64,000 nucleotides of DNA from Methanobacteriota archaeon (GCA_963769885.1 CAVYNH010000007.1:416001-480000); one strand, 5' to 3'. Counted from the first letter of the stretch, positions 245 through 57,913 are shown. Notes: a model not told the origin generated them from the sequence alone. Numbers and translations are program-made.

Positions 245-381
245 GACATTCTCCTCCCCACCACTAGTCCCCTTGTTCTCTCTGAAGACCAGGGTTAGAT
301 TCCAGCAGGCCTGGGAGGTTTAAAAATGTTGCGAAAAAAAAAGACCAGGTACCGTCTCCTGAAGATTCAGGATTAGGTTGG

Positions 382-1965
382 TTATACCGTGGATGTGGGG
401 AGGGTTTTGACGAGGTATGGCCCGCGGTCGGTGAACCCGAGGCGTCGGTAGTAGGGCTTGACACCGACGCCGCTGAGGACGAACAGCCGGTGGGCATCGT
501 AGTCTTCCCGGGCAATGCACTCGGCTTCGGCCAGCAGGCGTCGACCGAGTCCTCGGTGTTGATACGTTATTCCGAGCGCATGACCGGTCAGTGGGACTTC
601 GCGACCCAGTACGCGCAGCTCCCTAATCATGAAACATGGCCCGGGGCTGAGCTCCGCTCGATATGGGTCGGAGATGATGCGCAGGCGGAGGTAGGCGTAA
701 AGCACGTTCTGAGAGGAATCAGTGAGGCTGATGAAGCGTTCCTCTCCGCTGCTGGCTTGGTAGGTTTCTTCTTCAAGTCTGAGGGTAGCAGCGGGTCCGG
801 GGTGGTCAGTTGGTTGATGGCCGATCTCGCGGCAGCGGATGCAGTGGCAAGTCTGACCGGTATGGTGGAGTTCGGCGGCGACGAGTTGGCGGAGGTTGCT
901 TTTGGTGATGCCGCCGTGAAGGCGTTGGATGGGGATGTCGCGTTGAATACGTTGGATACGGATCCAAAGCGGAATCTCGGCTTTGACGGCGGCGAGGAGG
1001 CGGACTGCGGATTGGGTCGTGAGGGGTTCAAAGTCGGGGTCGCGTGCGAGATCTGCGCCGTCGACGACGAGGGTCGGGTAGATTTTGAGCATGTCGGGCT
1101 TAAACCGGTCATCGGTAAACACAGTGCGGAACATATTCTTGTCTGTGATGGGGGTGGAGCCGGGGAGGCCGGGCATGAGATGGTAGCAGACTTTGAGGCC
1201 GGCGTCTTTGGCGAGGCGGGTGGCGGTGATGGAGTCAGTGACGGTGTGACCACGGTCCATTTTCGTCAGCAGGGTATCGTCGGTGGATTGGACGCCGAGT
1301 TCGACGCGGGTCGCGCCGTACGATAAAATACTGTGGATGTGGTGGAGTCGGAGCCAATCTGGTCTGGTTTCGATGGTGAGGCCGATGCAGCGTGCGGGGG
1401 CAGATTCGTTGGTCTGTTTGGCCTTAGCGAGTGTTGGGGAGTGGGTGCCGTTCATGGCGTCGTAGCAGCGGGTGACGAACCATTCTTGGTACCAGGGTGA
1501 TCGTGCGGTGAAGGTGCCGCCCATGATGATGAAGTCGATCTTGTCGGTGTCGTGGCCGATGGTGCGGAGTTGTTTGAGTCGGTTGGCGGTCTGTTGGTAG
1601 GGGTCGCAGTGGCAACTGATGGCGCGCATGGCGGCGGGTTCGTCGCCGGTATAACTCTGGGGGGTGTTGGTGGTGGGGCCGCCGGGGCAGGGGAGGCAGC
1701 GGCCGTGGGGGCAGTCGGCGGGGCTGGTCATGACGGCGGTGACGGCGACCCCGGAGAGGGTGCGGGTGGATTTAAGTCTGAGGAGTTGGAGGAGGTTGTC
1801 GTTGTCGAGGAGGTCATCGGGGAGGGCGGCGAGGATGTCGCTGTCTTGGGGGATGGTCGTGAGGCGGTATTTTTTGCAGAGGCGTACTTTGGCTTGTTGG
1901 AGCTGGTTTTTGGTCGTGATTTGCTCAGTGCGGAGCAAGGCGATGATGTCCTCGAAGAAGGTCAT
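382..1965 (-). CDS. elp3: tRNA uridine(34) acetyltransferase Elp3 (radical SAM + KAT domain)
   Basis: RTLSGVAVTAVMTSPADCPHGRCLPCPGGP radical SAM motif, GGTF, GLTIETRPD, RVELGVQS, and C-terminal QHRGLGRRLL..AE / SGVGVKPYYRRLG acetyltransferase motifs. Confidence 0.96.
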   Translation of the reverse strand: MTFFEDIIALLRTEQITTKNQLQQAKVRLCKKYRLTTIPQDSDILAALPDDLLDNDNLLQLLRLKSTRTLSGVAVTAVMTSPADCPHGRCLPCPGGPTTNTPQSYTGDEPAAMRAISCHCDPYQQTANRLKQLRTIGHDTDKIDFIIMGGTFTARSPWYQEWFVTRCYDAMNGTHSPTLAKAKQTNESAPARCIGLTIETRPDWLRLHHIHSILSYGATRVELGVQSTDDTLLTKMDRGHTVTDSITATRLAKDAGLKVCYHLMPGLPGSTPITDKNMFRTVFTDDRFKPDMLKIYPTLVVDGADLARDPDFEPLTTQSAVRLLAAVKAEIPLWIRIQRIQRDIPIQRLHGGITKSNLRQLVAAELHHTGQTCHCIRCREIGHQPTDHPGPAATLRLEEETYQASSGEERFISLTDSSQNVLYAYLRLRIISDPYRAELSPGPCFMIRELRVLGREVPLTGHALGITYQHRGLGRRLLAEAECIAREDYDAHRLFVLSGVGVKPYYRRLGFTDRGPYLVKTLPTSTV

Positions 1966-2022
1966 AGGGTGACGGGGTGGTGATGGGTGGGGGTGCTACT
2001 AAAAACTATTGGTGGATGTGGG

Positions 2023-4869
2023 TTAGGTGTCCCAGAAGCCTCGGGTGCGGGCGTATTGGAGTTCGGCTTGGAGGATGTCGCGGAAGAATTTGACTTCGAG
2101 GTCCTCGGATTTTTTGAGTTCGAGTTTGGTGAAGCGGCTGAGGATGCGGGCGGCGGTGTCGGGGCCGACGCCGCGGGCGGCGAGGGCGTAGACCGCGTAT
2201 TTGCCGTAGGTGAGGATGAGGCTGGCGTTTTTGTTGAGGCGTTTGAGTTCTTTGAGGTCGGCGGTGGTGCGGTGGTGTTTGGTGAGGACGTGTGCTTGGT
2301 CGCCGTGGTAGCGGCGGAGCATGGCGATTTTGATGGCGCCGCAGCGGTGGCATTTGGGTTGGAGGGGGAGGCGGCCGACGAAGGTGTTCCATTGGTTGTG
2401 GCAGTTGAGGCAGACCATGGTGATGTCGGCGTCTTCGATGCGTTTTTTGAGGGCCATTAGGATGCTGCGGTCGGGGCGGAGGGGGACCATGAGGCCGCGG
2501 ATGGTTTCGAAGCCGGCGAGGCTCATGGGGGAGAGGCCGTGGTGGGTGTGGAGGGTGATGTCGCCGCGTTGGACAGCTTCGAGGATGTCTTTGGTGCGTG
2601 GGACGTCCATGTTTTCCCAGAGGATTTTTTCCATGGCTTCGTCGAGGACGAGGGAGTGTTCGAAGAGGCCGAAGAGGCGTTTGACGCCGATGTTTCTGTA
2701 GTCGAAGCCTTTGCGCAGCGCGCCGAATTTTCTGGCGACATGGATGAGCTGCCAGCGGAGGTATGTGGAGTTGCGCAGGACGGTTTCCATGAGATAGGGG
2801 AGGGTGCCGGGATGGGTGGTCTGCAGGAGTTCGATGATGCGGTCCGGGGGGAGCCGGGCGGGGATTTCGAGGTTGATGCGGTAGGCGTCGCTGTTGATGC
2901 CGATGCTTTCGCCGAGCATCTGGGCGAGGATGGCGCTGATGAGGCGGCCGAGGGTCTCGTTGACTTTGGTGCCGAGGCAGGCGTTGATGACGACGTTGTG
3001 GTCTTCGGCGTCGATGGTGATGGTGCGGTCGTCGGGGAGGAGGAAACCGAGGCGCTGTTGCGTCTGGGCGTAGTCTCGGATCTTGTCGATGAGGCCGGGG
3101 TCGCAGGGGTAGTTGGTGATGGGGGCGGTGCTGGCGGCTTGTCTGCGGAGTTGGCCGACTTCGTGGGCGACGTCGTAGGGGACGGGGATCTCTTCGCCGA
3201 TCCAGCTGGGGACGGAGCCGATTTCTTTGACTTGGGTGACGAGGATGGTGTCTTCTTCGCGTTTGACGATGACCCAGGGGCGGCCGCGGAGGATGAATTT
3301 CTCGCCTTCGAAGCCGGAGCTGAGGACGAAGCTTTCGTCCAGCGTACCGATGGCTTTACGCGTGCTGATGTCGATGACGGGGTAGGTGACCTCGTCGGGG
3401 ATCATGGAGATGTTGTCGAGGAAGTAGGTGCGGCTGTTCATCTTTTTGGCGAAGACGCGGGTGCCGGCCTCGTCCTCGATCCAGATGGTCCTGTGGTCTT
3501 TGAGCTGGGTGCTGAGCAGGGTGAACATCTCTTTCGTGAGGCTATGGAAGCTGTAAGCCCTTGTGATAATGTCGTAGGCTTTCTGTTCGGGGATGCGGCC
3601 GTATTCGAGGACGAGGCTAATGATTTGGTTGGTGAGAACGGTGAGGGGGTTTTGACGGACCGAGTAACGTTCGAGGTCGCCGGCGAGGGCGCGGCGGGCG
3701 ATGACGAGGCTTTCGGCGAGGTCTTCGGGGTTGGTGGCGAGGATGACGCCGGTGCTGGTGCGACCGACGCGGTGGCCACTGCGACCGACGCGTTGGACGA
3801 TGCGGGTGACCTCGCGGGGGGAGTTGTACTGGATCACGAAGTCGGTGTCGCCGACGTCGATGCCCAGCTCGAGTGAAGAGGTGCAGATGAGAGCTTTGAG
3901 CTGGCCTTTTTTGAAGGCGTCTTCGGCTTCGACTCTGGCGATTTTAGAGAGGGAGCCGTGGTGGACACCGATGGCGAGGCCGGGGTTCCATTGGTGGAAG
4001 CGGGAGGCGAGGATCTCGGCGCCGTCTCGGGTATTGATGAAGAGGAGGGTGCTGACGTGGGTGTCGATGAGCTCTTTACAGCGGCGGAGGAGCGCGGCGG
4101 AGGTGGGCTCAATGTGGAGGGTGTGGGCGAGGTGGTCGTCGGCGGTGGTGGGCTGGGGCATTTCGACGGTGAGGTCGATGTGTTTGGTAACGTCGACTTC
4201 AAGGATGGTGACAGGGCGGAAGCCTTTAGTGGTCTGGCCGCCGAGGAAGCGGGCGACCTCGTCGGGGAGTCCGACGGTGGCGGAGAGACCGACGCGCTGG
4301 AAGCCGTAGGTGGTGTCTTTGACGATTTCTTCGAGGCGTTCGAGGCCGACGGCGAGCTGGGCACCGCGTTCGTCGGTGGCGAGCTCATGGACTTCGTCGA
4401 CGACGACCCAACGGACGGCTTTGAGGTGGCTACGCAGTCGTTTGCCGGTGAAGAGGATCTGGAAAGTCTCCGGGGTGGTGATGAGCATGTCTGGAGGGCG
4501 CTGGGATTGTTTGAGACGTTCGGCTTGGGGGGTGTCGCCGTGGCGGACGGCGATGCTGATGCCCAGTGTCTTTGCTTCGTCGAATGTGCGGTGGAGCATG
4601 TCGCGGTTCAGTGCGCGCAGCGGTGTAATATAAAGAATGGAGATACCCTTGTGCCGTTCCGGGTCGTCCTTGATGGCGAGGAATTGATGGAAGATGGGGA
4701 GGAGCGCGGCCTCGGTTTTCCCAAGTCCGGTGGGGGCGATGAGGAGGATGTTGAGACCGTGGAGGATTTCGGGGATGGCCTTGATTTGGGGTTCCGTGGG
4801 TGCGCTGATGTGACGGGCGGAAAGGAGCGGGTGGATGCGGGGGTCGAGGAGGTCGAAGACGCTGGTCAT
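2023..4869 (-). CDS. lhr: ATP-dependent DEAD/DEAH-box helicase, Lhr family
   Basis: APTGLGKT Walker A, TPLRALNRD, DEVH, GLSAT, HHGSLS, TSSLELGIDVG, QRVGRSGH; C-terminal CxxC...CxxC zinc site. Confidence 0.94.
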   Translation of the reverse strand: MTSVFDLLDPRIHPLLSARHISAPTEPQIKAIPEILHGLNILLIAPTGLGKTEAALLPIFHQFLAIKDDPERHKGISILYITPLRALNRDMLHRTFDEAKTLGISIAVRHGDTPQAERLKQSQRPPDMLITTPETFQILFTGKRLRSHLKAVRWVVVDEVHELATDERGAQLAVGLERLEEIVKDTTYGFQRVGLSATVGLPDEVARFLGGQTTKGFRPVTILEVDVTKHIDLTVEMPQPTTADDHLAHTLHIEPTSAALLRRCKELIDTHVSTLLFINTRDGAEILASRFHQWNPGLAIGVHHGSLSKIARVEAEDAFKKGQLKALICTSSLELGIDVGDTDFVIQYNSPREVTRIVQRVGRSGHRVGRTSTGVILATNPEDLAESLVIARRALAGDLERYSVRQNPLTVLTNQIISLVLEYGRIPEQKAYDIITRAYSFHSLTKEMFTLLSTQLKDHRTIWIEDEAGTRVFAKKMNSRTYFLDNISMIPDEVTYPVIDISTRKAIGTLDESFVLSSGFEGEKFILRGRPWVIVKREEDTILVTQVKEIGSVPSWIGEEIPVPYDVAHEVGQLRRQAASTAPITNYPCDPGLIDKIRDYAQTQQRLGFLLPDDRTITIDAEDHNVVINACLGTKVNETLGRLISAILAQMLGESIGINSDAYRINLEIPARLPPDRIIELLQTTHPGTLPYLMETVLRNSTYLRWQLIHVARKFGALRKGFDYRNIGVKRLFGLFEHSLVLDEAMEKILWENMDVPRTKDILEAVQRGDITLHTHHGLSPMSLAGFETIRGLMVPLRPDRSILMALKKRIEDADITMVCLNCHNQWNTFVGRLPLQPKCHRCGAIKIAMLRRYHGDQAHVLTKHHRTTADLKELKRLNKNASLILTYGKYAVYALAARGVGPDTAARILSRFTKLELKKSEDLEVKFFRDILQAELQYARTRGFWDT

Positions 4870-4943
4870 TGTGGTGCTGGGTGGGTGCTATCTGGGTTGG
4901 TTTAATTGAATGTTTGCTCACTTTGGAGAAAAGAGGAGAAAGG

Positions 4944-4968
4944 ACCCCCGGTTGAACAACAGGGGGGT
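4944..4968 (-). terminator. Hairpin downstream of alba, terminator-like
   Basis: ACCCCC-G-GTTG-AA-CAAC-A-GGGGGGT inverted repeat followed on the minus strand by a pyrimidine tract. Confidence 0.5.
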
Positions 4969-4977
4969 GTTTGTTTT

Positions 4978-5289
4978 TTATGGTTTTTCGATGCTGAGGC
5001 AGATTTCGATGGAGGAGACGTTGGATTTTTTGCCGTCTTCGCTGACGACGGCTTCGGTGCCGATGTCGATGGTTTTGACGGTGGCGTTGGTAATGAAGCG
5101 GTTGCGGGCGATCTCGGCGGCGTCGACGGCGCGGCTGATGGCGTTGCCTCGTGCTTTCAGGAGGACTTCGGTGTGTTCACCGGAGTTGAGGACGGCCATG
5201 ATGGCGGAGACGTAGTTCATAGGCGGCTTGTTGCCGACGTAGATGACGTTTGAGTTGATGTCTTCCTCGGTTCTTTCGTGAGTGCTCAT
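4978..5289 (-). CDS. albA: DNA/RNA-binding chromatin protein Alba
   Basis: [39 protein letters not shown] signature. Confidence 0.97.
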
Positions 5290-5390
5290 TGGTCTCTCCC
5301 CTGGAGAATATTGCTCCTGGATTCAGATGTAAGTACGGGTGAAGAGGACTCTTCGTTATTTAAAGATTGTGATTTTTACAGGAGTGGGAG

Positions 5391-5675
5391 TTAGGTGTAG
5401 TAGTGGTCGGTGTCCTTTTTTTCTTCTTCTTTGGCGAAGTCTTTGTGGTCGTAGAGGTCGATGGCGAGGATGGCGTGGAGGGGGATGATGCGGAGTTTGC
5501 CTTTGTCTTGGCCGTGGGTCTCGCCGAGTTCCATGAGAAGACCGGCTTCTTCGATGCCGATGTTGGCGTACCCTTTGAAGATGCCTTCGGTCTCCAGGGC
5601 GCTATCTCGTGCACCGATGGAGGTGATCTTGTAGTGGGATTCTTCGACGAGTTTTAACTCTTCTCTCTTGGTCAT
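5391..5675 (-). CDS. Conserved hypothetical protein, possibly Sm/SH3-like beta fold with acidic/basic tail
   Basis: Coding-like codon bias, ATGA overlap with the upstream HTH gene, beta-rich pattern (EGIFKGY...RIIPLHAILAID). Confidence 0.7.
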   Translation of the reverse strand: MTKREELKLVEESHYKITSIGARDSALETEGIFKGYANIGIEEAGLLMELGETHGQDKGKLRIIPLHAILAIDLYDHKDFAKEEEKKDTDHYYT

Positions 5676-6124
5676 GGTGTCCCTTTCCGCTGTTGTTCTA
5701 AGAGCGTCTGGAGGTGTTCGACGGTTTTGCCGTAATTCTCCACCGCTACTTTAATGTGTGCTTCGACGAAGTTCCAGGCTTTCTGGAGGTTGCCGTACCG
5801 GAGTCGGTAGCCTTTCTTCTGCTGCTGGGTGGCGTCGTCGTAGACGCTGAGTTCTTCGAGGATGTCCAGGCCTTTGAGCTTGTTGAGGTGACGATAGACT
5901 GTAGGCCGGGAGGTTTTGAGTGCGCCGGCGATGTCGTCGACGAACCAGGCCTTAGTGGGTTGCTTAAGGAAGAAGTCGACGAAAATCTTGTAGGGCAGGG
6001 TCGGGTCCGAGCCTTTACTGAGGTATCCTATCTGTTCGAAGAACATGCGTGCGGCGATGTCGAAGTCCTCTTCCCCATTTAATGGGGTGTTGCTAACGAC
6101 TTGAAGTTCAAACGGCATTCCCAC
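5672..6124 (-). CDS. Winged helix-turn-helix transcriptional regulator (ArsR/TrmB-like)
   Basis: VDDIAGALKTSRPTVYRHLNKLKGLDIL HTH followed by a wing (KKGYRL). Confidence 0.85.
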   Translation of the reverse strand: MGMPFELQVVSNTPLNGEEDFDIAARMFFEQIGYLSKGSDPTLPYKIFVDFFLKQPTKAWFVDDIAGALKTSRPTVYRHLNKLKGLDILEELSVYDDATQQQKKGYRLRYGNLQKAWNFVEAHIKVAVENYGKTVEHLQTLLEQQRKGTP

Positions 6125-6219
6125 TCCTCACCGGAAGGGAATAGTTTGAGGAGTTAAATAGGTTTCGTGACGTAGAAAAGGTCGGGGGATGAATCGCCCC
6201 TAGGTAGGATGGGGAGAAT

Positions 6220-7581
6220 TTAGAGGACGTGGAAGTACCGCGCGGTCTCCCAGGCGGTGACCTGCATTTGGTACTCCTCCCATTCCGTGCGCTTGATTGC
6301 TATGAAGTTTTCGAAGACGTTGCTGCCTAGGGCGTCCCTGATGAAAGTGCTCTTCTGCATGATCTCCAGGGCATGGCCGAGGCTTTCGGGGAGCTGGCCG
6401 ATGCCGTACGATGCCCGTTCCTTGGGGGTCAGTGCGTAGATGTTACGTTCGACGGGTTCCGGGGCTTTGAGTTTGCGTTTGATACCGTCAAGGCCGGCGG
6501 CGATCATGACGGTGTAGGCGAGGTAGGGGTTGCAGGCGACGTCTGGGTTGCGCAGTTCGATACGCGTCGCCTGTCCACGGTTCGCTGGGATGCGGATGAG
6601 GGAGCTGCGGTTGCGGTTCGCCCAGCAGATATAGGTGGGGGCTTCGTAGCCGGGGACGAGGCGTTTGAAGGAGTTCACGGTCGGGTTGAGGACGGCGCAC
6701 ATCTCCCGGGAATGGGTGAGGAGCCCGGCGAGGAATGAGTACGCAAGCGGGCTGAGTTTGTGCTTGTCTCCTGGGTCATAGAAGGCGTTCTTGCCGGCTG
6801 GCGTGCACATCGAAATGTGGGTATGCATCCCTGAGCCGTTCGTCCCAAAGAGGGGCTTGGGCATGAACGAGGCGTACAAACCATGGCTGTCAGCGATGAT
6901 TTTACTCACGTATTTCAAGGTGATGACGCGCTCCGCTGTCGTGAGTGGGTCGGCGTAGTTGAAGTTGATCTCCTGCTGTCCGGGGGCGACCTCATGGTGC
7001 GTGGTGTAGATCTCGAGGCCGAGCTGCTGCAATGCCATGGCGATGTCCGCCCGGACGGTTTCTGCCAGGTCACGGTGGGAGAGGTCGAAGTAGCCGGCGT
7101 TGTCATGCGGCAGCAAGGTCGGACCGTCGCTGTTTCGCTGGAAGAGGAAGAATTCGCATTCAGAGCCGGTATTGCAGCGGTACCCGAGTTTGTCCGCCTT
7201 TTGCAATATCTGTTGTAGTACGTATCGGACGTCGCCGGGGAAGCGTTGTTTTCCGTCCTGTTCATAGATGTCGCAGCTGATTTTCGCGGTCTTCCGTGGC
7301 TCGATGCTCTCAGGGATGATGCTGAAGCTGGCGGGGATTGGGCGGATGACCTTGTCTGATTCTTCGATGTTGGCACAGCCGATGATGGACGAGGCGTCGA
7401 ACGGGATCCCGTTGTCCAACGCGTCCTTGAGGAGTCCTGAGGGGATGACGAGGTTGCGCGGCATCCCGAGAAGGTCGACGAACTGGAGGCGGATGAACCG
7501 GATGTTCTCATGGGCAACAGTCGATAGGATAGAGTCCGCAGTCCAGAATTCAGCCGATTTCGTCGACGTTACGTTTTTCAT
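6220..7581 (-). CDS. glnA: Glutamine synthetase type I
   Basis: IRFIRLQFVD, ECEFFLF, HHEVAPGQQEINF, GSGMHTHIS, NSFKRLVPGYEAP, NRSSLIRIP, RIELRNPD. Confidence 0.96.
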   Translation of the reverse strand: MKNVTSTKSAEFWTADSILSTVAHENIRFIRLQFVDLLGMPRNLVIPSGLLKDALDNGIPFDASSIIGCANIEESDKVIRPIPASFSIIPESIEPRKTAKISCDIYEQDGKQRFPGDVRYVLQQILQKADKLGYRCNTGSECEFFLFQRNSDGPTLLPHDNAGYFDLSHRDLAETVRADIAMALQQLGLEIYTTHHEVAPGQQEINFNYADPLTTAERVITLKYVSKIIADSHGLYASFMPKPLFGTNGSGMHTHISMCTPAGKNAFYDPGDKHKLSPLAYSFLAGLLTHSREMCAVLNPTVNSFKRLVPGYEAPTYICWANRNRSSLIRIPANRGQATRIELRNPDVACNPYLAYTVMIAAGLDGIKRKLKAPEPVERNIYALTPKERASYGIGQLPESLGHALEIMQKSTFIRDALGSNVFENFIAIKRTEWEEYQMQVTAWETARYFHVL

Positions 7582-7774
7582 CTATAAAACCTCCACCCGA
7601 AAGAGCATACTTCATCCCGTATGGACGCACGCCCTTTTTTAATTTCCGAAACAGCTGATTCCCCCCCTGCTTCGTCGCCTCCTCGCGTACGGACATTTTT
7701 CGAGGAAAAAATGACGAAGAGGACAGGAGGAGGGCCCCCGTTGCTCGAAATTACAATCCTTCGCAAACTATTAA

Positions 7775-9160
<1,386 letters not shown>

Positions 9161-10621: not shown

Positions 10622-10634
10622 AACAACCGCGACT

Positions 10635-46743: not shown

Positions 46744-46757
46744 CCCCCCAGGCTATT

Positions 46758-47300: not shown

Positions 47301-47315
47301 CCTGGAGCCCCCCCC

Positions 47316-49261: not shown

Positions 49262-49293
49262 TTCCTCGTCCACATATAAGGGAGGTTAGGTCA

Positions 49294-50328
49294 ATGGATG
49301 AGCCGCGAACGCTTCGCATGGAAATTTTTCTTGGAATAAGCCTGCTTGTTGTCGGGATTGTTGGTCGATACATGTTTGTCGGCCGAGGTATTCAGCCCTT
49401 CCCGAATTTTGAGATTATCATGGTCGTGACGTTTATTGGGATGATGGTGCTGCGGCCATGGGTCGCGTTCCTGCTCCCACTTGGGTGTATGATCGGCAGC
49501 GATGTCTTGATTGGGAACCCGATTTTTATAGGGGCGGAGATGAACCGGATTGTATTGTTCACGTATTCGGGGTTTGCGATTCTTGCTGCGGTGAGTTTCC
49601 TGCTGCGAAATCGGCTGCAGCCGATATATCGATCGTTGCGTGTGAAGACGGTGGGAGCTACCCTTGGTCTTGGTGTCGGGTTCGTGCTCCTGTATGATTG
49701 TTGGACGAACCTGGGGTGGTGGTACCTGCTGTATCCGCATACAGCTGGAACGCTGGGGATGGTGTTTACCGCGGGGTTGCCGTTCATGGTGTATCATCTG
49801 ATCTCGGGTCTGGTGACGTTTGGGTGTGTGGGCCTGCCGGTGTTGTTGGTTGCGTCGCGTCGGATTGGGATGCCGTCGCTACGACCGTTGCGTCGGCGGC
49901 AGCTGGTGCCCATCGTCTGCCTGGTCCTCGGGTTGGTCGTGCTGTCGTTCACCGGGATGGCCGCGCGGGTGCCGGAGCAGCACAGCGACATCTGGTTGAC
50001 GAGGGCAGATGCGACGAGCGTGTCGGTGACGGTGCAGGGCGAGGGCTGGAGCGTCGCGGACCATCTCATTGCCTATGAGGGTGACACGGCGTATAGTCTG
50101 TTGCAACGTCTTGCCTCGTCGCATGGCCTGTCGGTGCAGGCGACGTACTATGCGTCGTTCGATTCGTGGCTGGTGCAGGGCATCGGTCCTGATGCTGGGC
50201 ATGATGCGACGTACTGGCAGTATTATGTGGATGGCGTGCTGCCGTCGGTGGGTGCAGATCACTGCCCGGTGGTGAATGGGCAGAGCCTGGTGTGGCGGTT
50301 CGAGGTCGTCTCCTCCGAGATGGGTTAG
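49294..50328 (+). CDS. Membrane protein: ECF S-component-like (DUF6580-like) domain fused to a C-terminal DUF4430 (transcobalamin-like beta-grasp) domain
   Basis: PNFE motif, SD.LIG, TN.GWW...YPHT..GL..F.AGLPF over ~6 TM helices; C-terminal TAYSLL...V.GIG...YWQYYVDG....VGAD...V..G..L.W.F. Confidence 0.7.
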   Translation: MDEPRTLRMEIFLGISLLVVGIVGRYMFVGRGIQPFPNFEIIMVVTFIGMMVLRPWVAFLLPLGCMIGSDVLIGNPIFIGAEMNRIVLFTYSGFAILAAVSFLLRNRLQPIYRSLRVKTVGATLGLGVGFVLLYDCWTNLGWWYLLYPHTAGTLGMVFTAGLPFMVYHLISGLVTFGCVGLPVLLVASRRIGMPSLRPLRRRQLVPIVCLVLGLVVLSFTGMAARVPEQHSDIWLTRADATSVSVTVQGEGWSVADHLIAYEGDTAYSLLQRLASSHGLSVQATYYASFDSWLVQGIGPDAGHDATYWQYYVDGVLPSVGADHCPVVNGQSLVWRFEVVSSEMG

Positions 50329-51041
50329 ATCTCGCAGTTCTGCTGGTCCAGCGTCTTGATTTTTCCTCGGACGAGGCTGATGGTGAGTGCGACGACGAGG
50401 AGGGCGGTGCCGAGCCCGATGGCGGTGCCGGTGACGTCGAGGGAGACCAAGAGGTTGTAGGATGAGTGGAGGATGATGGCGAGTGCGTAGTAGGGGAGGA
50501 CGAGGAGGAGGGAGGTTTTTTTCAGCAGGGTTTTTCCGTAGCCGTAGCCGGTGAGGGCGGTGGCGGAGGCGTGGAGGAGGCAGGCGCCGAAGCTGCGGAT
50601 GGCGATGAGGAGGAAGAATGCGCCGAGGTCCGGGGTGAGGTTGTCGAGACCGTAGAAGAGGTTCTCGGTGGCGCTGAAGCCGAGGCCGGCGACGGCGCCG
50701 TAGATGAGGCCGTCTTCAAGTTCGGTGAGTTGACTGCGAACGGAGCGGGCGCCGAGGATGAGGGGTTTGGCGAATTCTTCGACGATGGGGGCGATGACGA
50801 TGACCATGAGGAGTGAGACCGTCTCGGCGTTCTGCAGCGAGGCGAAGAGGGAGATCTCGAGTCCGAATTCCAGGATGAAGGCGGCGATGATGGCGAGGCT
50901 GGCTCCCCAGAGGAAGCAGATGAAGATGGATGCCCATCGTTGGCGGTGGCAGCGTTCGGTGTCGCGGATCCACCAGGCGTAGACGATGGGGACGAGGAAG
51001 GCGGTTCCGAGGAGGAGAATGAGTCTGACGTCGAAGTCCAT
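50325..51041 (-). CDS. prsW: PrsW-family intramembrane metalloprotease
   Basis: APIVEEFAK, DGLIYG, GFSATEN, LLHASAT, LHSSYN. Confidence 0.92.
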   Translation of the reverse strand: MDFDVRLILLLGTAFLVPIVYAWWIRDTERCHRQRWASIFICFLWGASLAIIAAFILEFGLEISLFASLQNAETVSLLMVIVIAPIVEEFAKPLILGARSVRSQLTELEDGLIYGAVAGLGFSATENLFYGLDNLTPDLGAFFLLIAIRSFGACLLHASATALTGYGYGKTLLKKTSLLLVLPYYALAIILHSSYNLLVSLDVTGTAIGLGTALLVVALTISLVRGKIKTLDQQNCEI

Positions 51042-51151
51042 TAAGTGGGGGTAGTTTGCTTGTGTTTAATTATTTAATGCATTGATTGTTCAAGTCTGTG
51101 TTTTACTCAGGGAGTGTCCAGGGGAAGTAGTCTTGGGTGTAGATGGTCTTC

Positions 51152-52924
51152 TTAGAGTTTGTAGTAGTACTCGCCGCTTTCTTTCTGCTGGCGTTCGAGG
51201 TAGGAGTCCGGTTTGTTGACGCGAGGCCGCTGGGTGTCTTCGTCGCGGCGGAAGGTGACGTCGACGTTGCGGAGGAACCGGTTCATGCCTTCGTGGAGGC
51301 TGTAGGGGCCGGTGGCGACGCCGCGTACTCCTGAGGTGCCGTCGAAGACGATGAGGCCGTCGCTGACCATGTCGATGAAGTAGACGTCGTGGTCGACGAC
51401 GAGGGCGGATTTGCCTGATTTTTCGACGATGCGGCGGATCATCCTTGAGACGACCATGCGTTGTTCGCTGTCCAGGTACGCAGAAGGCTCGTCGAAGAGG
51501 TAAATGTCGGCCTCGCGCATGATCGCGGAGGCGATGGCGACGCGCTGCAGCTCGCCGCCGGAGAGCGTGTCCAGGGAGCAGTCCAGCAGGGTTTTGAGAT
51601 GGAGGGGCTCGAAGACCTCCGCCTGATACAGTGAAGCGGAGAACAGCTGGGGGGCTGTGGTTTCGTACAGTTCGCGGACGGTGCCTTGGTAGTCGGGGGA
51701 GATGTATTGGGGTTTGTAGCTGATCTTGAGGTCGTATTCTATCTCGCCGGTGGTTGGTTTCTGGACGCCGGCGAGCATCCTGACGAAGGTGGTTTTGCCG
51801 ATGGCGTTGGGGCCGACGACGCCGATGATCTCTCCCTCGCGGATGATGCCAGGTTCGACTTCGAGGCTGAAGTCGTCGAAGTCTTTGGTGAGCCGGCCGT
51901 AGGAGACGTAGACGCGGAGGTCCTGGCGTTGTTTGGGGGGATGGGCGACGAACTCGATTTTTTCGCCGAACTTGAGGTTCTCTTCTTTAAGGTAGCCGGA
52001 GAGGTAGGTGTTGATGGCGTGGCGGACGGCTCTGGGAAAAGTGGTGACGCCGTAGGCGCCCTCGGTGCCGTACATGATGTGGGCGTTGTCGCACATGAAG
52101 TCGAGGATGGCGAGGTCGTGTTCGACGACGATGACCTTCTTGGTTTTAGAGAGGGCTTGGATGATGCGAGCGACCTTGAGGCGCTGGTAAATGTCGAGGT
52201 AGCTGGTCGGTTCGTCGAAGAAGTAGAAGTCGACGTCTTTGATGAGGGCGGCGGCGATGGCGGTCAGTTGGAGTTCGCCGCCGGAGAGGGTGCCTCGGCT
52301 GATGTCCTTGCTGAGGAGGTTGTGGATCCCGAGTGTATTGACGATATCGTTGTAGGCTTTGGTGGTCCCATTTTTTTGGAGGACGTCGGCGACGGTGCCG
52401 GTGAGAATCTTGGGGAGTTGGTCGACGTATTGTGGTTTGAAGACGGCGGTGAGGGTACCTCCAGAGAGGCCCTTGAAGTGGTCGTAGAGTTCGGTGCCGC
52501 TGTAGGCGTCGAGGACGGGGGTCCAGCTTGGCTTGGTGGTGTAGTCGCCGAGGTTGGGGATGATCTGGCCGGCGAGGATCTTGATGGCGGTGGTCTTGCC
52601 GATGCCGTTTTGGCCCAGGACGCCGAGGCAGGTGCCGGCTTGGGGGATGGGGAGGCGGTAGAGGCGGAAGCCGTTTCTGCCGAATTGGTGGACAAGGTCT
52701 TCGGCGAGTTCTTCGGCGAGGCCGATGATCTTGATGGCTTCGAAGGGGCATTTGTGGACGCAGATGCCGCAGCCGGCGCAGAGGTCTTCAGAGATGACGG
52801 GTCTGCCGTCTTCGCCTTTGGTGACGGTTTCGTCGCCAGCGCGTACTCTAGGGCAGAACTTGATGCACTCGTAAGCACAGTTCTTGGGTTTGCATCGGTC
52901 TTTGATAAGGACGGCGATCCGCAT
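51152..52924 (-). CDS. rli: Ribosome recycling ATPase ABCE1/RLI
   Basis: N-terminal Fe-S motifs (CKPKNC..EC..FCP; CAGCGICVHKCPF), two ABC domains (GQNGIGKT, LSGGEL, DEP), TFRRD...RPRVNK. Confidence 0.97.
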   Translation of the reverse strand: MRIAVLIKDRCKPKNCAYECIKFCPRVRAGDETVTKGEDGRPVISEDLCAGCGICVHKCPFEAIKIIGLAEELAEDLVHQFGRNGFRLYRLPIPQAGTCLGVLGQNGIGKTTAIKILAGQIIPNLGDYTTKPSWTPVLDAYSGTELYDHFKGLSGGTLTAVFKPQYVDQLPKILTGTVADVLQKNGTTKAYNDIVNTLGIHNLLSKDISRGTLSGGELQLTAIAAALIKDVDFYFFDEPTSYLDIYQRLKVARIIQALSKTKKVIVVEHDLAILDFMCDNAHIMYGTEGAYGVTTFPRAVRHAINTYLSGYLKEENLKFGEKIEFVAHPPKQRQDLRVYVSYGRLTKDFDDFSLEVEPGIIREGEIIGVVGPNAIGKTTFVRMLAGVQKPTTGEIEYDLKISYKPQYISPDYQGTVRELYETTAPQLFSASLYQAEVFEPLHLKTLLDCSLDTLSGGELQRVAIASAIMREADIYLFDEPSAYLDSEQRMVVSRMIRRIVEKSGKSALVVDHDVYFIDMVSDGLIVFDGTSGVRGVATGPYSLHEGMNRFLRNVDVTFRRDEDTQRPRVNKPDSYLERQQKESGEYYYKL

Positions 52925-52984
52925 AGGGGTTGTCTCATCCTGAAGAAATCAGCGCTTCATAATGTTTATTGTCCAGGGATGTTG

Positions 52985-53941
52985 TTAGGAGGGTTTGGTA
53001 GCGGTGATGACGTAGTAGCCGTAGCGGGCGTTGTAGTTGTAGAGGAGTTGGAGGAAGGCTCTGGGGAGGAGGATGGCTTTGGTCATGGAACGCTGAAGTC
53101 TGGTGGATCGTGTGTTGGGTGCCGAGGCTTTTTGTTGGTCGGCGAAGAGGAGGCCGAAGCGGAGGACTTGGAGGCGGCTGACGGTGCGGTTTTTGAAAAG
53201 ATTGTCGACGGTGTGGATGGTGAATCCTGCGTCGCGGAGGTGTGTCAGGAGTTGGGTGAGGGTGGTGGTGTTGCGTTGGAGGAGGGAGGGGGCGGGGGCT
53301 TGGCGTGGGATGCGCTTGGTGGGGAGGAGGTCGAGGATGAGCAAGGTCCCATGTGGTTTGAGGAGGCGATGCATTTCGTTGGCGAAGGCGCGTTTGTCTT
53401 CGGCGTGGTTGGCGGATTCGAGGGCGTAGGCGGCGTGGAAGGAGGCGTCTGGGAAGGTGGTCTTGAGGAAGGAGCCTTGGAGGAATCGGACGTTTTCTTG
53501 GTTGGCGGTGGTTTGGTGGTGTCGTGCGATGTGGACCTCGTTTGGGGCGAGGGTGAGGCCGATGAATGAGCAGGTGGGGTGTTGGCTGGCGAGGTAGAGG
53601 GTGGTGGTGCCGATGCCGCAGCCGGCGTCGAGGACGAGGGACTTGGGGGCGAGGTTGAGTCGGCGGTCGATGTAGGCGTCCATGCGGTGGTGCGGTGGGG
53701 CGGGGGTGGTGTCGTGGTAGTCGAAGTGCCAGCCGTTGTCTCGTTGCGCCCGGCGGAGGGAGCTCTGGGGGTTGGTCCAGAGGGAGTCGTAGTAGTCAGC
53801 GAGGGTGGTTTCGTAGTCGCTGAGTCGTTTGGCGTCCTGAGGTGTGGGTGTGGTGGTGGGTCCCATGCCGGTGGGTACGAACGGGGGTAGGTGTTTTAAT
53901 TGTTCTGGTGGTGATTCGATGGGGTTTTTCCGTGGTATCAA
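52985..53941 (-). CDS. Class I SAM-dependent methyltransferase (tocopherol/sterol MT-like); start uncertain
   Basis: VLDAGCGIG, GLTLAP, FPDASF..AYALES..H..DK......RLLKP.G. Confidence 0.85.
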   Translation of the reverse strand: MIPRKNPIESPPEQLKHLPPFVPTGMGPTTTPTPQDAKRLSDYETTLADYYDSLWTNPQSSLRRAQRDNGWHFDYHDTTPAPPHHRMDAYIDRRLNLAPKSLVLDAGCGIGTTTLYLASQHPTCSFIGLTLAPNEVHIARHHQTTANQENVRFLQGSFLKTTFPDASFHAAYALESANHAEDKRAFANEMHRLLKPHGTLLILDLLPTKRIPRQAPAPSLLQRNTTTLTQLLTHLRDAGFTIHTVDNLFKNRTVSRLQVLRFGLLFADQQKASAPNTRSTRLQRSMTKAILLPRAFLQLLYNYNARYGYYVITATKPS

Positions 53942-54143
53942 TGATGGTGTGTTCGCATGCCCGGAGGGCAGTCGTGGTTTTAAGAGTGATGAGGAGTTGC
54001 GTCGGCATCGGTAAGGGTATCAGGAGGAGGATTGGCTACCCCTCCTGGAGATAGGTCATTGGTAAGGTTTCATCCCGGGCCGGTGCGGTAGGCTTATGAG
54101 GGGTGTGCCTGATGAGGGGGGAAATCTTCGAGTCGTGGTTGTG

Positions 54144-54752
54144 ATGAATCAGATGAGTGAGGCGAAGAAGCCGGTGTCGGTGGTGGCTGAGCCGGCGCCG
54201 TTGGGGTTGATTGGGTTGGCGGTCGCGGCGCTGGTGTTGGCGTCGACGGATCTGCGTCTGGCGTCGGCGGCGGCGAAGTCGTTGATGATCCCGTGGGCGA
54301 TGTTCATGGGGGCGAGCGCGCAGTTGATCGCGGGGTTGATGGAGTTCCGGCGCAACAACGTGTTTGGGGCGACGACGTTTACCACGTATAGTTTCCTGTG
54401 GTTTTCGGTGGCGATTACGTTGGTGATTACGGTGTTTACGCATGTGACGTTCGATCTGACGCATTATGCGTATGGGTTGTTGGGGTTCTTTGTGTTCAGC
54501 GTGATTCTGACGGTGGCGTCGTTGATGACGAATGTGACGTTTGTGTTGATTTTGGTGGGTATCGACGGGGCGTTGGGGAGTCTGGTGGCGAACCTACTGG
54601 TGAAGTCCCCGTCGGAGGTTGTAGGCGGGTTCTTGGTGTTGGTGTCGGTGCTGTCGTTTTATGGGGCGGCCGCGATCCTGCTGAATAGTATGACGGGCCG
54701 TGTGGTGCTACCGGTGGGGCGTGCGTTGTGGCGTCCGCGGGGCGGCGGGTAG
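54144..54752 (+). CDS. satP: GPR1/FUN34/YaaH (SatP) acetate/succinate uptake transporter
   Basis: AEPAPLGLIGLA, AQLIAGLMEF.RNNVFGATTF..YS..W; six TM helices. Confidence 0.88.
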   Translation: MNQMSEAKKPVSVVAEPAPLGLIGLAVAALVLASTDLRLASAAAKSLMIPWAMFMGASAQLIAGLMEFRRNNVFGATTFTTYSFLWFSVAITLVITVFTHVTFDLTHYAYGLLGFFVFSVILTVASLMTNVTFVLILVGIDGALGSLVANLLVKSPSEVVGGFLVLVSVLSFYGAAAILLNSMTGRVVLPVGRALWRPRGGG

Positions 54753-54975
54753 AGTATATTATTATGTACAAGATATTTTTTCTGGGCAAGAACGGGGATG
54801 CTTTTGGCTTTCGTTTTTTCTATTTTGTATTGGTATCAGGGTTTTTTTTCTTTCCTGCTGCGGGCAGGGGCGGCATCTTTCATCCAATCTGTTAAAATAA
54901 TATATTCTTTATTTCTATATATTTAACAAAGTACAAATGATACGACTTCATTTCGAACCCATAAGAAGGGGAAAA

Positions 54976-55165
54976 ATGAAGCACAACATCAGAATTGGAA
55001 GGCCAGTGAAAACCACGGTATTCTTGACACTGCTCATCGCGGCATCTATGCTACTATCTCGCTTCCCTGCTGTAATATCACAGAGCACGATGTTTAAAAA
55101 AAAGATAGACTTCGCAGAATCGCGGCACTCTGGGAGGGCACCCTCCTCCCTTCTTTTTTTCCCTG
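54976..55165 (+). pseudogene. Remnant of a secreted-protein gene: signal peptide followed almost directly by its terminator
   Basis: VKTTVFLTLLIAASMLLSRFPAVISQ matches the leaders at 58706 and 63812 (VKTTAFLTLLVT.SML.SSVPA...QN). The GGGAGG...CCTCC + T-tract at ~55132-55160 resembles the terminator at ~61930-61970. Confidence 0.6.
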
Positions 55166-55240
55166 CTCCCCCCTGGACCATACCGAAAGACAGAAATAGA
55201 CAAAGCAACCTTACCGTATATTATTAGAAGGCGTATATTA

Positions 55241-57895
55241 ATGAACCCAGTAAAATCCTCATTAGTGAATAGAAGGCTACTCACACGAGGTCTCGCGGTG
55301 GTACTATGCCTTATCATGTGTTTTACCGCCATTCCGATCCATCGAATCGCGAGCGCGGCTCCCACCTCTGCCTCGTCGCTCACCTATACCTTTTCCTATG
55401 CACAGCCGGCAGTATCCAACCAAATCCTCTCTTCTCGTTCCTTCACCAAGATCTCCATGCCGAACAGTCTGACCATGAGCAAGGAGGCCGGTCTTCCCGC
55501 ACTCCCAGTCTCATTCCTGAAGATCGCGCTCCCGGCCCAAACCACTGTTGACAAGATCTCCGTCGCGGGCGCCTCGCACGAGGTCCAGACCTCGATCAAC
55601 CTCAATGACCACCCCATCACGCCGTACCAACACCCGATTCCCTTCGGCGACCCGCTGCCGGCGGACATCAATTATAACCAGGGCGTGTACCAATCCACGA
55701 CTCCGTACCCGGCTTCCTGCTACGACGGGGCCTATGACATCGGCTACTGCCGCGGCTACGCCATCCTCTCCCTCGCCCTCATGCCCGTACAGTATGTCCC
55801 CGGCACCGGCAGGCTTCTGTTCACCCCGGATCTGACGGTCACGGTGAGCCTCAAGCCCGCTCCCCTGAACCCGCTGCTCCGCAACGATGCGGACGATGAG
55901 GCCTGGGTCCAGGCGCTGGTCTGCAACCCTGACGTCGTCACCAGCTACCGGAACCGTGGAGCCCCGCTGGGGTACCCCGGCGGCCTCTGCGACCCCGGTC
56001 AACAATATACATATGTTATTATTACAACAACACAGAATGGGCTGTCTGACTGGCAAACCGGCGGCTCACTCACCTACAATTTGACGAGCTTACTGCAGCA
56101 TCACAGCGCCACCGGCATGACCAGTGTAAAGGTCACCAAACAGACCATCGATGCCTGCCATGACTACTACAACACCACCTCGCTCTTCAACGACAGCCAG
56201 GCTCACATCCGCCAGTTCTGTAGAGACGCCTACCAGGATTGGGGGACGGAGTACGTCCTGATCATCGGTGATGCGGACACCATGCCCGCGCGCCTCATGA
56301 GCTCATCGGCGGAAAGCAACGTTGACGCCGATCTCTATTGGAGCAACCTGGATAACTCCTTCAACGCCGACCACGACAGCCAATGGGGCGAGGAAGGCGA
56401 CTCAGGCTTCGACCTCTACAGCGAGCTGTACGTCGGTCGGCTCACCGCCGATACCCCTCAGGATGTCTCGAACTGGATGACCAAGAGCTTCCGCTATGAT
56501 GCAGAGGGTAACCCTGACGTTCTTGATAACGCCTGCTTCTACGGCGGCGACACAACCTGGAACTGCCAGGGAGACGACTTCGAGGACTACAGCGGCGTCA
56601 AGGGAACCCACAACTACCTCGGGCCCAGCCCCGGCGCCTCAGGCCCATACCCGAGCTGGATGGGCTTCGAGTACGGCTTCGAGACCTGGAACCAGGTCTA
56701 CAGCGGCATCTCCTATAACATGAGCAACAAGTGGACCGAGGAGCCGCCGAACCCCGGTTGGCACGGCGGCGCAGGACAAGGCGTCCCCGGACTTCGCAAC
56801 GCCATCAATAACAACCAAGCCTCCGTCATTTCCGGCATCGCCCACGCCAACGAACACATGTCCCTTGATGTCACGGACACAACCTGGGAGACCCAGTACC
56901 ACAACACCCACCCGTTCGTCCTCCATGACTACGGCTGCCACTGCGGCGACTTCTCCGCCTCCGATGATGGAGTCCTCGACTCTATGCTCTTCCGGTCCAG
57001 CACCTACCTTGCCTTCGCGTGTTTCTTCAACACGGGGCTCGGCTGGGGGGCCTTCGACGATACCAACTCCTCCAGCGCGATCCAGCAGAAGATGTTCTGG
57101 GACTACTTCTTTGACATGGCCAACAATTCGGGGAGTGTCATGAATTGGCAGCTCGGGAAGGGCAATGCCTTCTCTAAGGATGAGATGGCCCCGACCATCA
57201 ATTGGGATGGGTCAAACCGGGAGACAATCCAGTGCCTCCTCCTCTTCGGAGACCCCGCGCAGTTGTTCAAACCCGCGCGGTCCAACGCCCCGCCCGCTGA
57301 TCCTGCGGCGCCGCAAGGGCCGACGAACGGTGTTGTGGCCTTCCAGTATGACTTCACCGCGACTACCACCGACCCCGACAACGACTCCATCTTCTATCTC
57401 TTCGACTGGGGCGATGGGACCAACAGCGGATGGGTCGGGTCGTTCGTTTCTGGTGAGACTGGTACCGCAAACCATGTCTGGACCGCGGGAGGCACCTACA
57501 GTGTGACCGTGAAGGCCAAGGATACGGTAGGGGCGATCACGAATGTCTCGCCGCCCGCCTCAATCACAATTGGCGCGCCGAACATGACGTGCAAGATTAG
57601 GGGCGGACTAGGCGCTAAGGTGATCCTCGAGAACTCCGGGGATGGCAATGCCACGCAGATTCACTGGAAGATTAGGATAAATGGTGGTATCGCCAGTGGG
57701 ATCCTTCGGGAGGTGGTTGGATCCATCACGGATCTGCCCGCGGGTGAGAAGACGACGATCAAGCCCTTTGGACACGAGATCGTCGGTTTTGGACGCATCA
57801 CCTTCGAGATGACTGCGACCGCGGCCTATACGAAGAATCTCGATATTACCAAGTTCGGGATGATCGTGGGACCCTTGATGGTGTTCCTCCCGTGA
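55241..57895 (+). CDS. Secreted gingipain-like cysteine peptidase (family C25): propeptide, catalytic domain, PKD domain, C-terminal Ig-like domain
   Basis: Signal peptide; propeptide (G.PALP, RGY.IL.L...PVQY.P..G.L); YVIIT, IRQF.RDAYQDWGTEYVLIIGD, DLY.ELYVGR; His in GIAHAN and Cys in YGCHCG; LFGDP; PKD motif FDWGDGTNSGW. Confidence 0.9.
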   Translation: MNPVKSSLVNRRLLTRGLAVVLCLIMCFTAIPIHRIASAAPTSASSLTYTFSYAQPAVSNQILSSRSFTKISMPNSLTMSKEAGLPALPVSFLKIALPAQTTVDKISVAGASHEVQTSINLNDHPITPYQHPIPFGDPLPADINYNQGVYQSTTPYPASCYDGAYDIGYCRGYAILSLALMPVQYVPGTGRLLFTPDLTVTVSLKPAPLNPLLRNDADDEAWVQALVCNPDVVTSYRNRGAPLGYPGGLCDPGQQYTYVIITTTQNGLSDWQTGGSLTYNLTSLLQHHSATGMTSVKVTKQTIDACHDYYNTTSLFNDSQAHIRQFCRDAYQDWGTEYVLIIGDADTMPARLMSSSAESNVDADLYWSNLDNSFNADHDSQWGEEGDSGFDLYSELYVGRLTADTPQDVSNWMTKSFRYDAEGNPDVLDNACFYGGDTTWNCQGDDFEDYSGVKGTHNYLGPSPGASGPYPSWMGFEYGFETWNQVYSGISYNMSNKWTEEPPNPGWHGGAGQGVPGLRNAINNNQASVISGIAHANEHMSLDVTDTTWETQYHNTHPFVLHDYGCHCGDFSASDDGVLDSMLFRSSTYLAFACFFNTGLGWGAFDDTNSSSAIQQKMFWDYFFDMANNSGSVMNWQLGKGNAFSKDEMAPTINWDGSNRETIQCLLLFGDPAQLFKPARSNAPPADPAAPQGPTNGVVAFQYDFTATTTDPDNDSIFYLFDWGDGTNSGWVGSFVSGETGTANHVWTAGGTYSVTVKAKDTVGAITNVSPPASITIGAPNMTCKIRGGLGAKVILENSGDGNATQIHWKIRINGGIASGILREVVGSITDLPAGEKTTIKPFGHEIVGFGRITFEMTATAAYTKNLDITKFGMIVGPLMVFLP

Positions 57896-57913
57896 TGAGT
57901 CCGTAATGGGAAG

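Follow-up and report, generated by a model that had tools for sequence, protein, structure and literature searches.

The stretch of DNA analysed here (the window) is 64 kb of an archaeal genome, C7:416001-480000 of G000 (assembly of 2.09 Mb in 7 contigs, 55% GC), in which the + strand alternates between C/A-rich and G/T-rich tracts. These tracts are very probably the product of a regional strand-asymmetric substitution process. GC skew in 1-kb bins of the window swings from about +0.4 to -0.5 (±0.3 to 0.5) and AT skew takes the opposite sign, so that the axis of asymmetry is G+T versus C+A; genome-wide, the standard deviation of 1-kb GC skew is 0.24, against a chance expectation of about 0.04. 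This process operates regionally and on DNA itself, has persisted over time, and is distinct from codon selection.

Genes were assigned with a six-frame codon-likelihood caller, which gave 1968 genes genome-wide, with 60-odd cases checked against Pfam. Calling by the greedy choice of the longest open reading frame (ORF) was dropped, as it chose antisense ORFs, for example over the RLI gene. Stop-free antisense ORFs of up to 627 amino acids, produced by the extreme skew and lacking family matches (e.g. 51686-53569 (+), opposite RLI), cause length-based gene calling to misassign strand in places. For tract boundaries in the window, a hidden Markov model (HMM) was applied to third-codon-position and intergenic sites, and change points were located separately. 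G000 carries an archaeal gene set (ELP3, Lhr, RLI/ABCE1, Mre11-Rad50, Nre, and Cdc6/Orc1), and the top public-genome matches to RLI are all uncultured sediment Thermoplasmatota. The same-genus comparison genome, G001, is a lake-sediment metagenome-assembled genome (MAG; CAIRCU01, isolate AlinenSediments_bin-5223) from an independent short-read assembly.

The initial annotation of the window had contrasted two + strand coding stretches, and the base counts it quoted are exact: 27 C and 8 G at 10801-10860, in the Pfam-verified gene for a PPDK_N (pyruvate phosphate dikinase ATP-binding) protein, and 10 C and 29 G at 39781-39840, in rad50. By HMM, the + strand is G/T-rich at 0.4-7.5, 17.2-18.0, 21-27.7 (patchy), 38.5-41.4, and 48.8-54.7 kb and C/A-rich at 8.0-16.3, 18.9-19.8, 28.4-29.8, 34.5-37.9, 44.0-48.8, 55.5-57.1, and 59.0-61.8 kb. 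Both the HMM and the change points place G-to-C switches at ~7.5, 18.3-18.7, 27.9, 34.3, 43.9, and 54.9 kb and C-to-G reversals at ~16.3, 19.8, 29.8, 37.9, and 48.8 kb, in agreement with the positions first proposed and, for the reversals, within the genes named for them. Switches in the window are spaced 6-11 kb apart, in keeping with the suggested period, and have a GC content of 0.40-0.51 against 0.55 for the genome, for which the earlier term "AT-rich" was too strong. Four of the six G-to-C switches (7.7, 18.7, 28.0, and 43.7 kb) coincide with ordinary divergent gene pairs. The switch at 54753-55240 is flanked by two + genes, so gene direction offers no explanation there.

Pfam matches bore out the gene identities on which the contrast had been built, with Mre11, Rad50, and SatP G/T-rich in the sense strand and SHMT/GlyA and an AAA_18 kinase (called adk) C/A-rich. 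Mre11, Rad50, DUF6580, SatP, and NfnB are real + genes within G/T-rich tracts; the rival antisense ORFs gave no matches. In the tract at 48808-54740, DUF6580 (+, +0.44) and satP (+, +0.69) are reversed, while PrsW, RLI/ABCE1, and a methyltransferase (all -) are C-rich at third positions (-0.71 to -0.82). Similarly, + genes with more G than C at third positions within 19834-27744 are nfnB (+0.15), 21887-23161 (+0.12), and 26022-26396 (+0.47), and the - genes there are C-rich at those positions. The reported shift in protein composition was also found: Thr, His, and Pro are more frequent in C/A-rich genes and Val, Gly, and Arg in G/T-rich ones.

Across the genome, two complementary compositions were seen at 4-fold degenerate sites. 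Base frequencies there are C.75, A.10, G.094, and T.056 in the 397 genes with the strongest C skew, and in the 80 with the strongest G skew they are G.70, T.12, C.125, and A.055, a near-perfect complement; in the top 198 C-skewed genes, C accounts for up to 83%. GC skew at third codon positions (GC3 skew) correlates with (A-T) skew at -0.85, with skew at position 3 far above that at positions 1 and 2, and intergenic skew tracks the third-position skew of flanking genes (r =.64-.83). GC content rises with skew in both polarities, GC at 4-fold sites climbing from.61 in unskewed genes to.88 where skew is below -0.8, and there are also low-GC stretches without skew. Polarity flips inside a co-directional ribosomal-protein operon (C4:271.8-284.4 kb; see the table), and S2, farther along, has a GC3 skew of +0.35. 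Other large reversed genes encode MCM, UvrB, RtcB, a CoA-transferase, and a Mur-ligase-like protein, all matched by Pfam in the called frame; overall, such a match was obtained for 10 of 11 large reversed genes tested, including Rad50, MCM, UvrB, and RtcB. As ribosomal-protein genes use both of these complementary codon dialects and intergenic DNA follows suit, the skew is not the outcome of codon selection. The reversal of ribosomal-protein, MCM, and UvrB genes likewise contradicts sense transcription as the sole cause.

The skew had been described as independent of gene orientation, which is an overstatement. Sense-strand GC3 skew of the 1968 genes forms a broad continuum from -0.9 to +0.9 around a mean of -0.26 (26% above 0, 10% above +0.3), so that 74% of genes are C-rich in the sense strand, and orientation accounts for part of the per-gene + strand skew (R2 = 0.27). 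It does not account for all of it. Sense-strand skew of neighbouring genes correlates at r = +0.57 when they point the same way and at r = -0.32 when they point in opposite ways, and this anticorrelation reveals a common + strand polarity beyond the mean effect of orientation. Autocorrelation of + strand skew falls to its minimum, -0.23, at 5.5 kb and is weakly positive again at 12-14 kb; the dip also occurs within co-directional runs, and gene orientation shows no negative lobe, which leaves a half-period of ~5.5 kb unexplained by gene arrangement. In 25-kb bins, no replichore-scale trend was detected beyond gene-strand bias.

To compare species, 114 orthologs of G000 and G001 were used (median 75% protein identity, with window synteny kept). 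Their GC3 skews correlate at r = 0.77, with an amplitude in G001 ~0.6 of that in G000, and the orthologs of mre11 and rad50 are likewise reversed (+0.46/+0.28). Identity at 4-fold sites is just 8-16 points above the expectation from composition. Silent sites are thus near saturation and the skew is nevertheless kept, which indicates that the pattern is actively maintained and not merely inherited. In C-rich genes, the compositional contrast between the species is largest for G versus C (1207 vs 219 sites). The skew profile of the ribosomal operon in G001 follows that in G000 (r 0.88); among other genera, G015 gives r 0.49, G014 gives r -0.11, and six are nearly flat. Within the family, the high-skew group comprises this genus, G014, and G015, and skew is low in the rest. 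In G014, L4 (+0.72) and L23 (+0.74), at the operon head, differ in phase from G000, and this difference of the same operon genes argues that polarity is regional and lineage-specific and not a matter of gene-intrinsic codon choice. For GlyA, GC3 skew of -0.72 to -0.87 was found only in the four closest metagenome contigs (>=89% protein identity) and was near zero in all more distant relatives checked; the closest additional relative is a 6-kb contig at 93% protein identity. Relatives are mostly 30-45% GC. The skew recurs in independent assemblies, namely the same-genus MAG and four metagenome contigs from other samples. The complementary 4-fold classes, the behaviour of intergenic DNA, the flips within an operon, and the persistence in a sister species together uphold the original proposal of a strand-specific mutational process, not a codon-selective one, anchored at many sites.

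With regard to anchoring, divergent intergenic regions held a G-to-C jump in 51% of cases and a reverse jump in 6%, the corresponding figures being 24 and 16% for tandem and 13 and 33% for convergent regions; no divergent region held a strong reverse jump. Three kb downstream of divergent sites the skew is still at half amplitude, and gene orientation is already randomised at that distance. In tandem contexts, the median distance from the change point to intergenic DNA is 17 bp for G-to-C (n = 22) and 380 bp for reverse changes (n = 33; p = 0.07). Sequence context thus places the switches mainly at intergenic DNA with putative promoters. Within genes, G+T skew rises by +0.1-0.2 from 5' to 3' in C-rich and intermediate genes.

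One switch could be compared with a probable replication origin. Two Cdc6/Orc1 genes were found, one of them full (C6:260359-261630 (-)), and ahead of it lie two direct mini-ORB repeats with the consensus GAkTTCsAGTGGAAA, marking the probable oriC. On one side are orc1/cdc6 and, just past it, nucS; on the other is a PRC-barrel/CDC48 gene pair. The + strand is G/T-rich to the left (+0.6 to +0.78) and C/A-rich for ~4 kb to the right. oriC bears the same G-to-C switch as the other sites, with the outward 5'->3' strand C/A-rich, and since the PRC-barrel/CDC48 pair shares the - strand with orc1/cdc6, this switch lies between co-directional genes. Given the switch at oriC itself, the other switches may hold a replication-like or DNA-synthesis-linked start.

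A mechanism consistent with these data would be a process of substitution that differs between the strands, is most intense in this genus, and operates in tracts of ~2-8 kb. Tracts would start at intergenic DNA, mostly with putative promoters, and at the orc1-adjacent oriC, and would spread outward both ways. The strand reading 5'->3' away from the start would be pushed to C (and A) and its complement to G (and T) wherever constraint on a site is weak, irrespective of which way the genes in its path run, raising GC and shifting amino-acid usage; most genes point outward and would become C/A-rich in the sense strand, and those crossed backwards G/T-rich. As to the cause, we tentatively suggest, at somewhat less than even likelihood, that the tracts were left by DNA resynthesis running in one direction from easily opened or broken intergenic DNA. 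Candidate events would be DNA synthesis during recombination or repair once ends have been resected, or replication that starts independently of an origin; a bias in polymerase errors or single-strand damage would be the alternative. Standard single-strand damage converts C to U and A to hypoxanthine and causes base loss on the exposed strand, and by this chemistry the exposed strand is the G/T-rich one, with its 3' end facing the anchor. Breakage, 5'->3' resection, and subsequent refilling would expose the G/T-rich strand in this manner; lagging-strand-template exposure at an origin, or non-template exposure in transcription, predicts the opposite sign. A polymerase favouring C insertion during outward synthesis could alternatively produce the same polarity. 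A bolder version, which we regard as rather doubtful, holds that the tracts are an evolution-integrated map of several hundred fixed one-directional synthesis starts, through recombination- or R-loop-primed replication or resection-and-refill between genome copies.

Several observations weigh against resynthesis from fixed starts. The initial annotation had described a sawtooth of abrupt G-to-C drops and gradual returns. At 250-500 bp resolution, large drops do outnumber large rises (58-61 vs 23-25, ~2.5:1); at the 1-kb scale, they are equal in number and the mean transition profiles are symmetric, and the gap widths assigned by the HMM to the two kinds of transition are alike (1099 vs 1166 bp). 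The sawtooth is therefore modestly supported, as a real statistical tendency that is more evident in the window than on average. Steps between tandem genes from C-rich to G-rich and from G-rich to C-rich number 31 and 32, an equality that is expected under any alternating model and so is neutral here. Reversed genes, examined to tell a sawtooth from decay of amplitude, lack a within-gene gradient (-0.016 ± 0.048, n = 48), and amplitude does not decay cleanly from the anchor, as in the mre11-rad50 peak, 3-5 kb off the 43.7 kb site; the weaker skew in between is partly due to an insertion sequence (IS). A k-mer search of 126 switch regions found none common to more than ~30%. Five repair and replication families were tested, none of which separates the high-skew genus from its low-skew relatives: the former has UDG, NucS, and RNase HII, as do most or all of the latter searched, the distribution of RNase HI across the family is sporadic, and no Y-family polymerase was found in 21 family genomes searched. 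DNA synthesis or breakage at the switch sites is something that we infer only indirectly, from sequence. Lastly, a transcription-linked process would also be compatible with anchors placed at promoters and with co-orientation in 74% of genes.

Such a process, with promoters firing both ways and read-through, would make the RNA-like strand of the dominant transcript C/A-rich, for example through template-strand damage or error-prone repair, and reversed genes would be those dominated by antisense or read-through transcription. The preference of switches for divergent over convergent regions and the predominance of C-rich sense strands speak for it, as does a fading of skew from 5' to 3' in genes, more so ahead of convergent neighbours; all reversed genes of the window but satP lie upstream of a convergent gene. 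We nonetheless consider it unlikely, because highly expressed co-directional ribosomal-protein genes range from -0.79 to +0.39, L4 and L23 at the operon head are strongly reversed in G014, the polarity is the reverse of the E. coli and human asymmetry (sense G+T-rich), and oriC has the same switch. In addition, no tract was found 5' of the 16S rRNA gene: rRNA genes lie at contig ends, with a low-GC skew-free island 5' of 16S and nothing beyond ordinary gene-direction skew 3' of 23S. Convergent read-through as a general cause of reversed genes was rejected, as 36% of them have convergent downstream neighbours against 32% of other genes. Resynthesis and polymerase-error or damage-bias readings are favoured over ordinary sense transcription. 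Self-reinforcing (bistable) skew, in which a G-rich strand is exposed to more damage via R-loops or G-rich single strands and selection maintains a C-rich sense strand, would account for stability inside the genus with another phase in other genera, for a continuum of skew with heavy tails at both extremes, and for the rise of GC in both polarities; the 5.5-kb anticorrelation and the intergenic preference of G-to-C switches are left unexplained, making this an improbable reading.

Classical multi-origin replication, with each abrupt switch an Orc1/Cdc6-dependent origin, N-domain-like skew, and about 190 origins in all, is very improbable. Characterised archaea have one to four origins. Dispersed replication origins had been one of the possibilities raised initially, and the sawtooth tendency and the shared polarity at a bona fide oriC would agree with them, as would ori3 of Haloferax volcanii, a peak of third-position cumulative GC skew where third-position and non-coding skew have the same sense as at oriC here (PMC12999951). 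Against this, the mini-ORB was found in comparable form only at the orc1-adjacent oriC, there are only two Cdc6/Orc1 genes, and the oriC tract is no longer than others. The motif search that had been recommended at the switch points gave neither an ORB nor a common k-mer beyond oriC, and TTCCAGTGGAAA with at most one mismatch was found in intergenic DNA only at oriC and one other site. Ordinary causes alone, i.e. gene orientation with codon-usage selection, inversion relics or foreign DNA, or assembly artefact, are barely credible. They would draw on the 27% of variance explained by orientation and on the presence of skew-free low-GC islands and IS copies, and are opposed by the complementary 4-fold compositions with matching intergenic skew, by reversals within genes and operons in a genome free of a large-scale replichore trend, by the same pattern in an independent MAG and four contigs of other samples, and by its persistence at nearly saturated silent sites.

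Comparison with known systems was then made. In vertebrate mitochondria, most genes have a comparably extreme depletion of G at sense-strand 4-fold sites and the few genes of the other strand show the complementary usage, a pattern ascribed to single-strand exposure. Mitochondria have one genome-wide polarity and one replication mode, in contrast to the hundreds of alternating tracts here. Transcription-associated asymmetry, a subject also treated in PMC12999951, makes sense strands G+T-rich in E. coli and human genes and is similarly tied to promoters and, for most genes, to gene direction, yet the sign here is the reverse, the amplitude is far larger, and the reversed class takes in 26% of genes, ribosomal-protein genes among them. 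Human N-domains display replication-associated skew jumps. Replication-associated skew in general (bacterial GC/TA skew; yeast origins, PMC3459929) shares with our tracts a keto/amino asymmetry at neutral sites and jumps at fixed sites, which here tend to be abrupt in the G-to-C direction, and the orc1-adjacent oriC with its two mini-ORBs likewise has a jump; no origin motif was found at the other jump sites, the domains are ~5 kb rather than replichores or hundreds of kb, and a C/A-rich outward 5'->3' strand is the reverse of the bacterial and human rule.

A further likeness is to bacterial GRINS, duplicated regions (>80% identity, >500 bp) within gene clusters (PMC8256042). Their GC and TA skews are intense, correlate positively, and peak at third codon positions; that study connects them with gene conversion. 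As in GRINS, both polarities occur on one strand within a kilobase, with Gly and Val in positive and Pro, Thr, and His in negative regions. In terms of skew, GRINS span >500 bp and average >0.15 in absolute value for both GC and TA skew; the tracts here measure 0.9-7.1 kb with GC skews of 0.3-0.5 and AT skews of 0.15-0.37 (1-kb), and the correlation and third-position strength are also found. The strongly skewed tracts are single-copy by blastn of the window against the genome, rather than duplicated at >80% identity in the same cluster, the only repeats being an IS200-like element and weakly skewed C25-peptidase paralogs. They differ further from GRINS in that they are unique sequence covering more than half of an archaeal chromosome, 2-8 kb long, anchored at intergenic DNA, and conserved in position between species. 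The shared signature and the link of GRINS to gene conversion lend some weight to an origin in recombination or repair, although the tracts here are not repeats.

A 2026 survey found archaeal skews to be weaker than those of bacteria by a factor of three to four and attributable mostly to gene direction and the genetic code, with little strand-specific mutation and mostly translation-driven skews (PMC12999951). The present amplitude is 10-50 times the archaeal figure of 7-8 excess G per kb (PMC12999951), and a full-text literature search found no account of kilobase-scale, orientation-independent extreme skew in archaea. With up to 83% C at silent sites and a reshaped protein composition, this lineage departs sharply from the weak-skew archaeal picture; tract positions are inherited between species, and its genome GC, 10-25 points above that of relatives, is attributed to the strand-specific process. 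The skew also violates assumptions of GC-skew origin finders, codon-usage expression predictors, gene callers, and compositional binning. If the tracts mark starts of DNA synthesis, breakage, or repair, sequence alone would yield a genome-wide event map for an uncultured archaeon and a way into the study of archaeal gene conversion and origin-independent replication. Under the bolder version above, much chromosome maintenance would proceed via dispersed promoter-associated initiation, with the outward-made strand gaining C, and bacterial GRINS might share the chemistry.

Table. Skew tracts, switches, and related features. Coordinates are window positions unless a contig is named; ribosomal-protein genes are those of the operon on C4.
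Feature	Position	Strand	Content and context	Skew	Basis
G/T-rich tract	370-7504		+ strand G/T-rich; genes all - (ELP3, Lhr helicase, glutamine synthetase), sense C/A-rich	GC3 -0.38 to -0.80	HMM, Pfam
G-to-C switch	7582-7822		divergent glnA/gdh intergenic, GC 0.49		change point 7504
C/A-rich tract	7972-16334		+ strand C/A-rich; two GDH and two PPDK_N-domain genes, all +	GC3 -0.51 to -0.78	HMM, Pfam
Gradual C-to-G reversal	16334-17162		3' end of second PPDK_N gene (+, 13677-16868)	1-kb profile -0.30, 0.04, 0.35	HMM neutral segment
Short G/T-rich tract	17162-18035		over - strand metallophosphoesterase gene 16865-18283		HMM, Pfam
G-to-C switch	18284-18734		divergent intergenic DNA 5' of nfnA		HMM
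Patchy G/T-rich region	19834-27744		genes of both strands		HMM, Pfam
G-to-C switch	27906-28297		divergent intergenic		change point 27933
C/A-rich tract	34521-37851		+ genes, including 35417-37156	GC3 -0.80 (35417-37156)	HMM
C-to-G reversal	37851-38484		within + pyridine-nucleotide oxidoreductase gene 37234-38616		change point 37875, Pfam
mre11 and rad50	38613-41863	+	reversed class	GC3 +0.73/+0.51; AT3 -0.86/-0.63	Pfam
IS200-like insertion sequence	41858-42569	-	Y1 transposase; breaks G/T-rich tract	weak	Pfam PF01797
G-to-C switch	43593-43863		divergent intergenic, GC 0.41		change point 43866
C/A-rich tract	44010-48805		GTPase, SHMT/glyA, AAA_18 kinase, 5' two-thirds of hflX	GC3 -0.86 (glyA), -0.92 (kinase)	HMM
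C-to-G reversal	48805-48808		inside hflX (47651-49261), 450 nt ahead of stop codon		HMM, change point, Pfam
G/T-rich tract	48808-54740		five genes, both directions		HMM, Pfam
G-to-C switch	54753-55240		488-bp intergenic, GC 0.40, between two + genes		change point 54924
Weaker C/A-rich tracts	55498-57076 and 58977-61804		+ C25-peptidase/PKD/MAM genes; low-GC skew-free stretch between		HMM
Probable oriC	C6:261700-261950 (locus L214:6700-6950)		two direct mini-ORB repeats, TTCGAGTGGAAA and TTCCAGTGGAAA, 158 bp apart, around long A/T run		
L3			ribosomal operon	GC3 -0.79	
L4			ribosomal operon	GC3 -0.62	
L14, L24			ribosomal operon	GC3 +0.24	
L6, L32e, L19e			ribosomal operon	GC3 about -0.67	
S5			ribosomal operon	GC3 +0.09	
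L30			ribosomal operon	GC3 +0.39	

The IS200-like element, encoding a 174-amino acid transposase, adjoins the 3' end of rad50. Ten copies are present in the genome, mostly on contig C7, and the near-identity of seven of them (98-100%) suggests recent activity. Most lie within skew-free DNA; their orientation, examined as a probe of the strand exposed as single-stranded DNA, is split 7:3 (n=10). Low-GC (0.27-0.46) skew-free stretches occur amid the skewed tracts at 31000-32000, 58000-59000, and 63000-64000 of the window and at C6:779000-783500, and may be recently acquired DNA or DNA not yet reached by the process.

Rfam and tRNA scans of the window returned no matches. Among its protein-coding genes, tandem glutamate-dehydrogenase paralogs (7823-10621) are divergent from glutamine synthetase (6220-7581) and are followed by two adjacent genes (10584-16868) for very large PPDK_N-domain proteins (1028 and 1063 amino acids) of unusual architecture, one with a weak response-regulator match and the other with a nucleotidyltransferase domain. 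A penicillin-amidase family gene at 31758-34179 is present as two overlapping ORFs (264 and 547 amino acids) corresponding to the N- and C-terminal portions of the family's Pfam model, which could reflect separate subunits or a frameshift. From 55141 to 63950, and continuing to 68.4 kb, lies a cluster of genes for secreted-type proteins (a peptidase C25 with PKD domains, a MAM-domain protein, and a 1533-amino acid ORF) with internal duplications at the DNA level of 75-91% identity.

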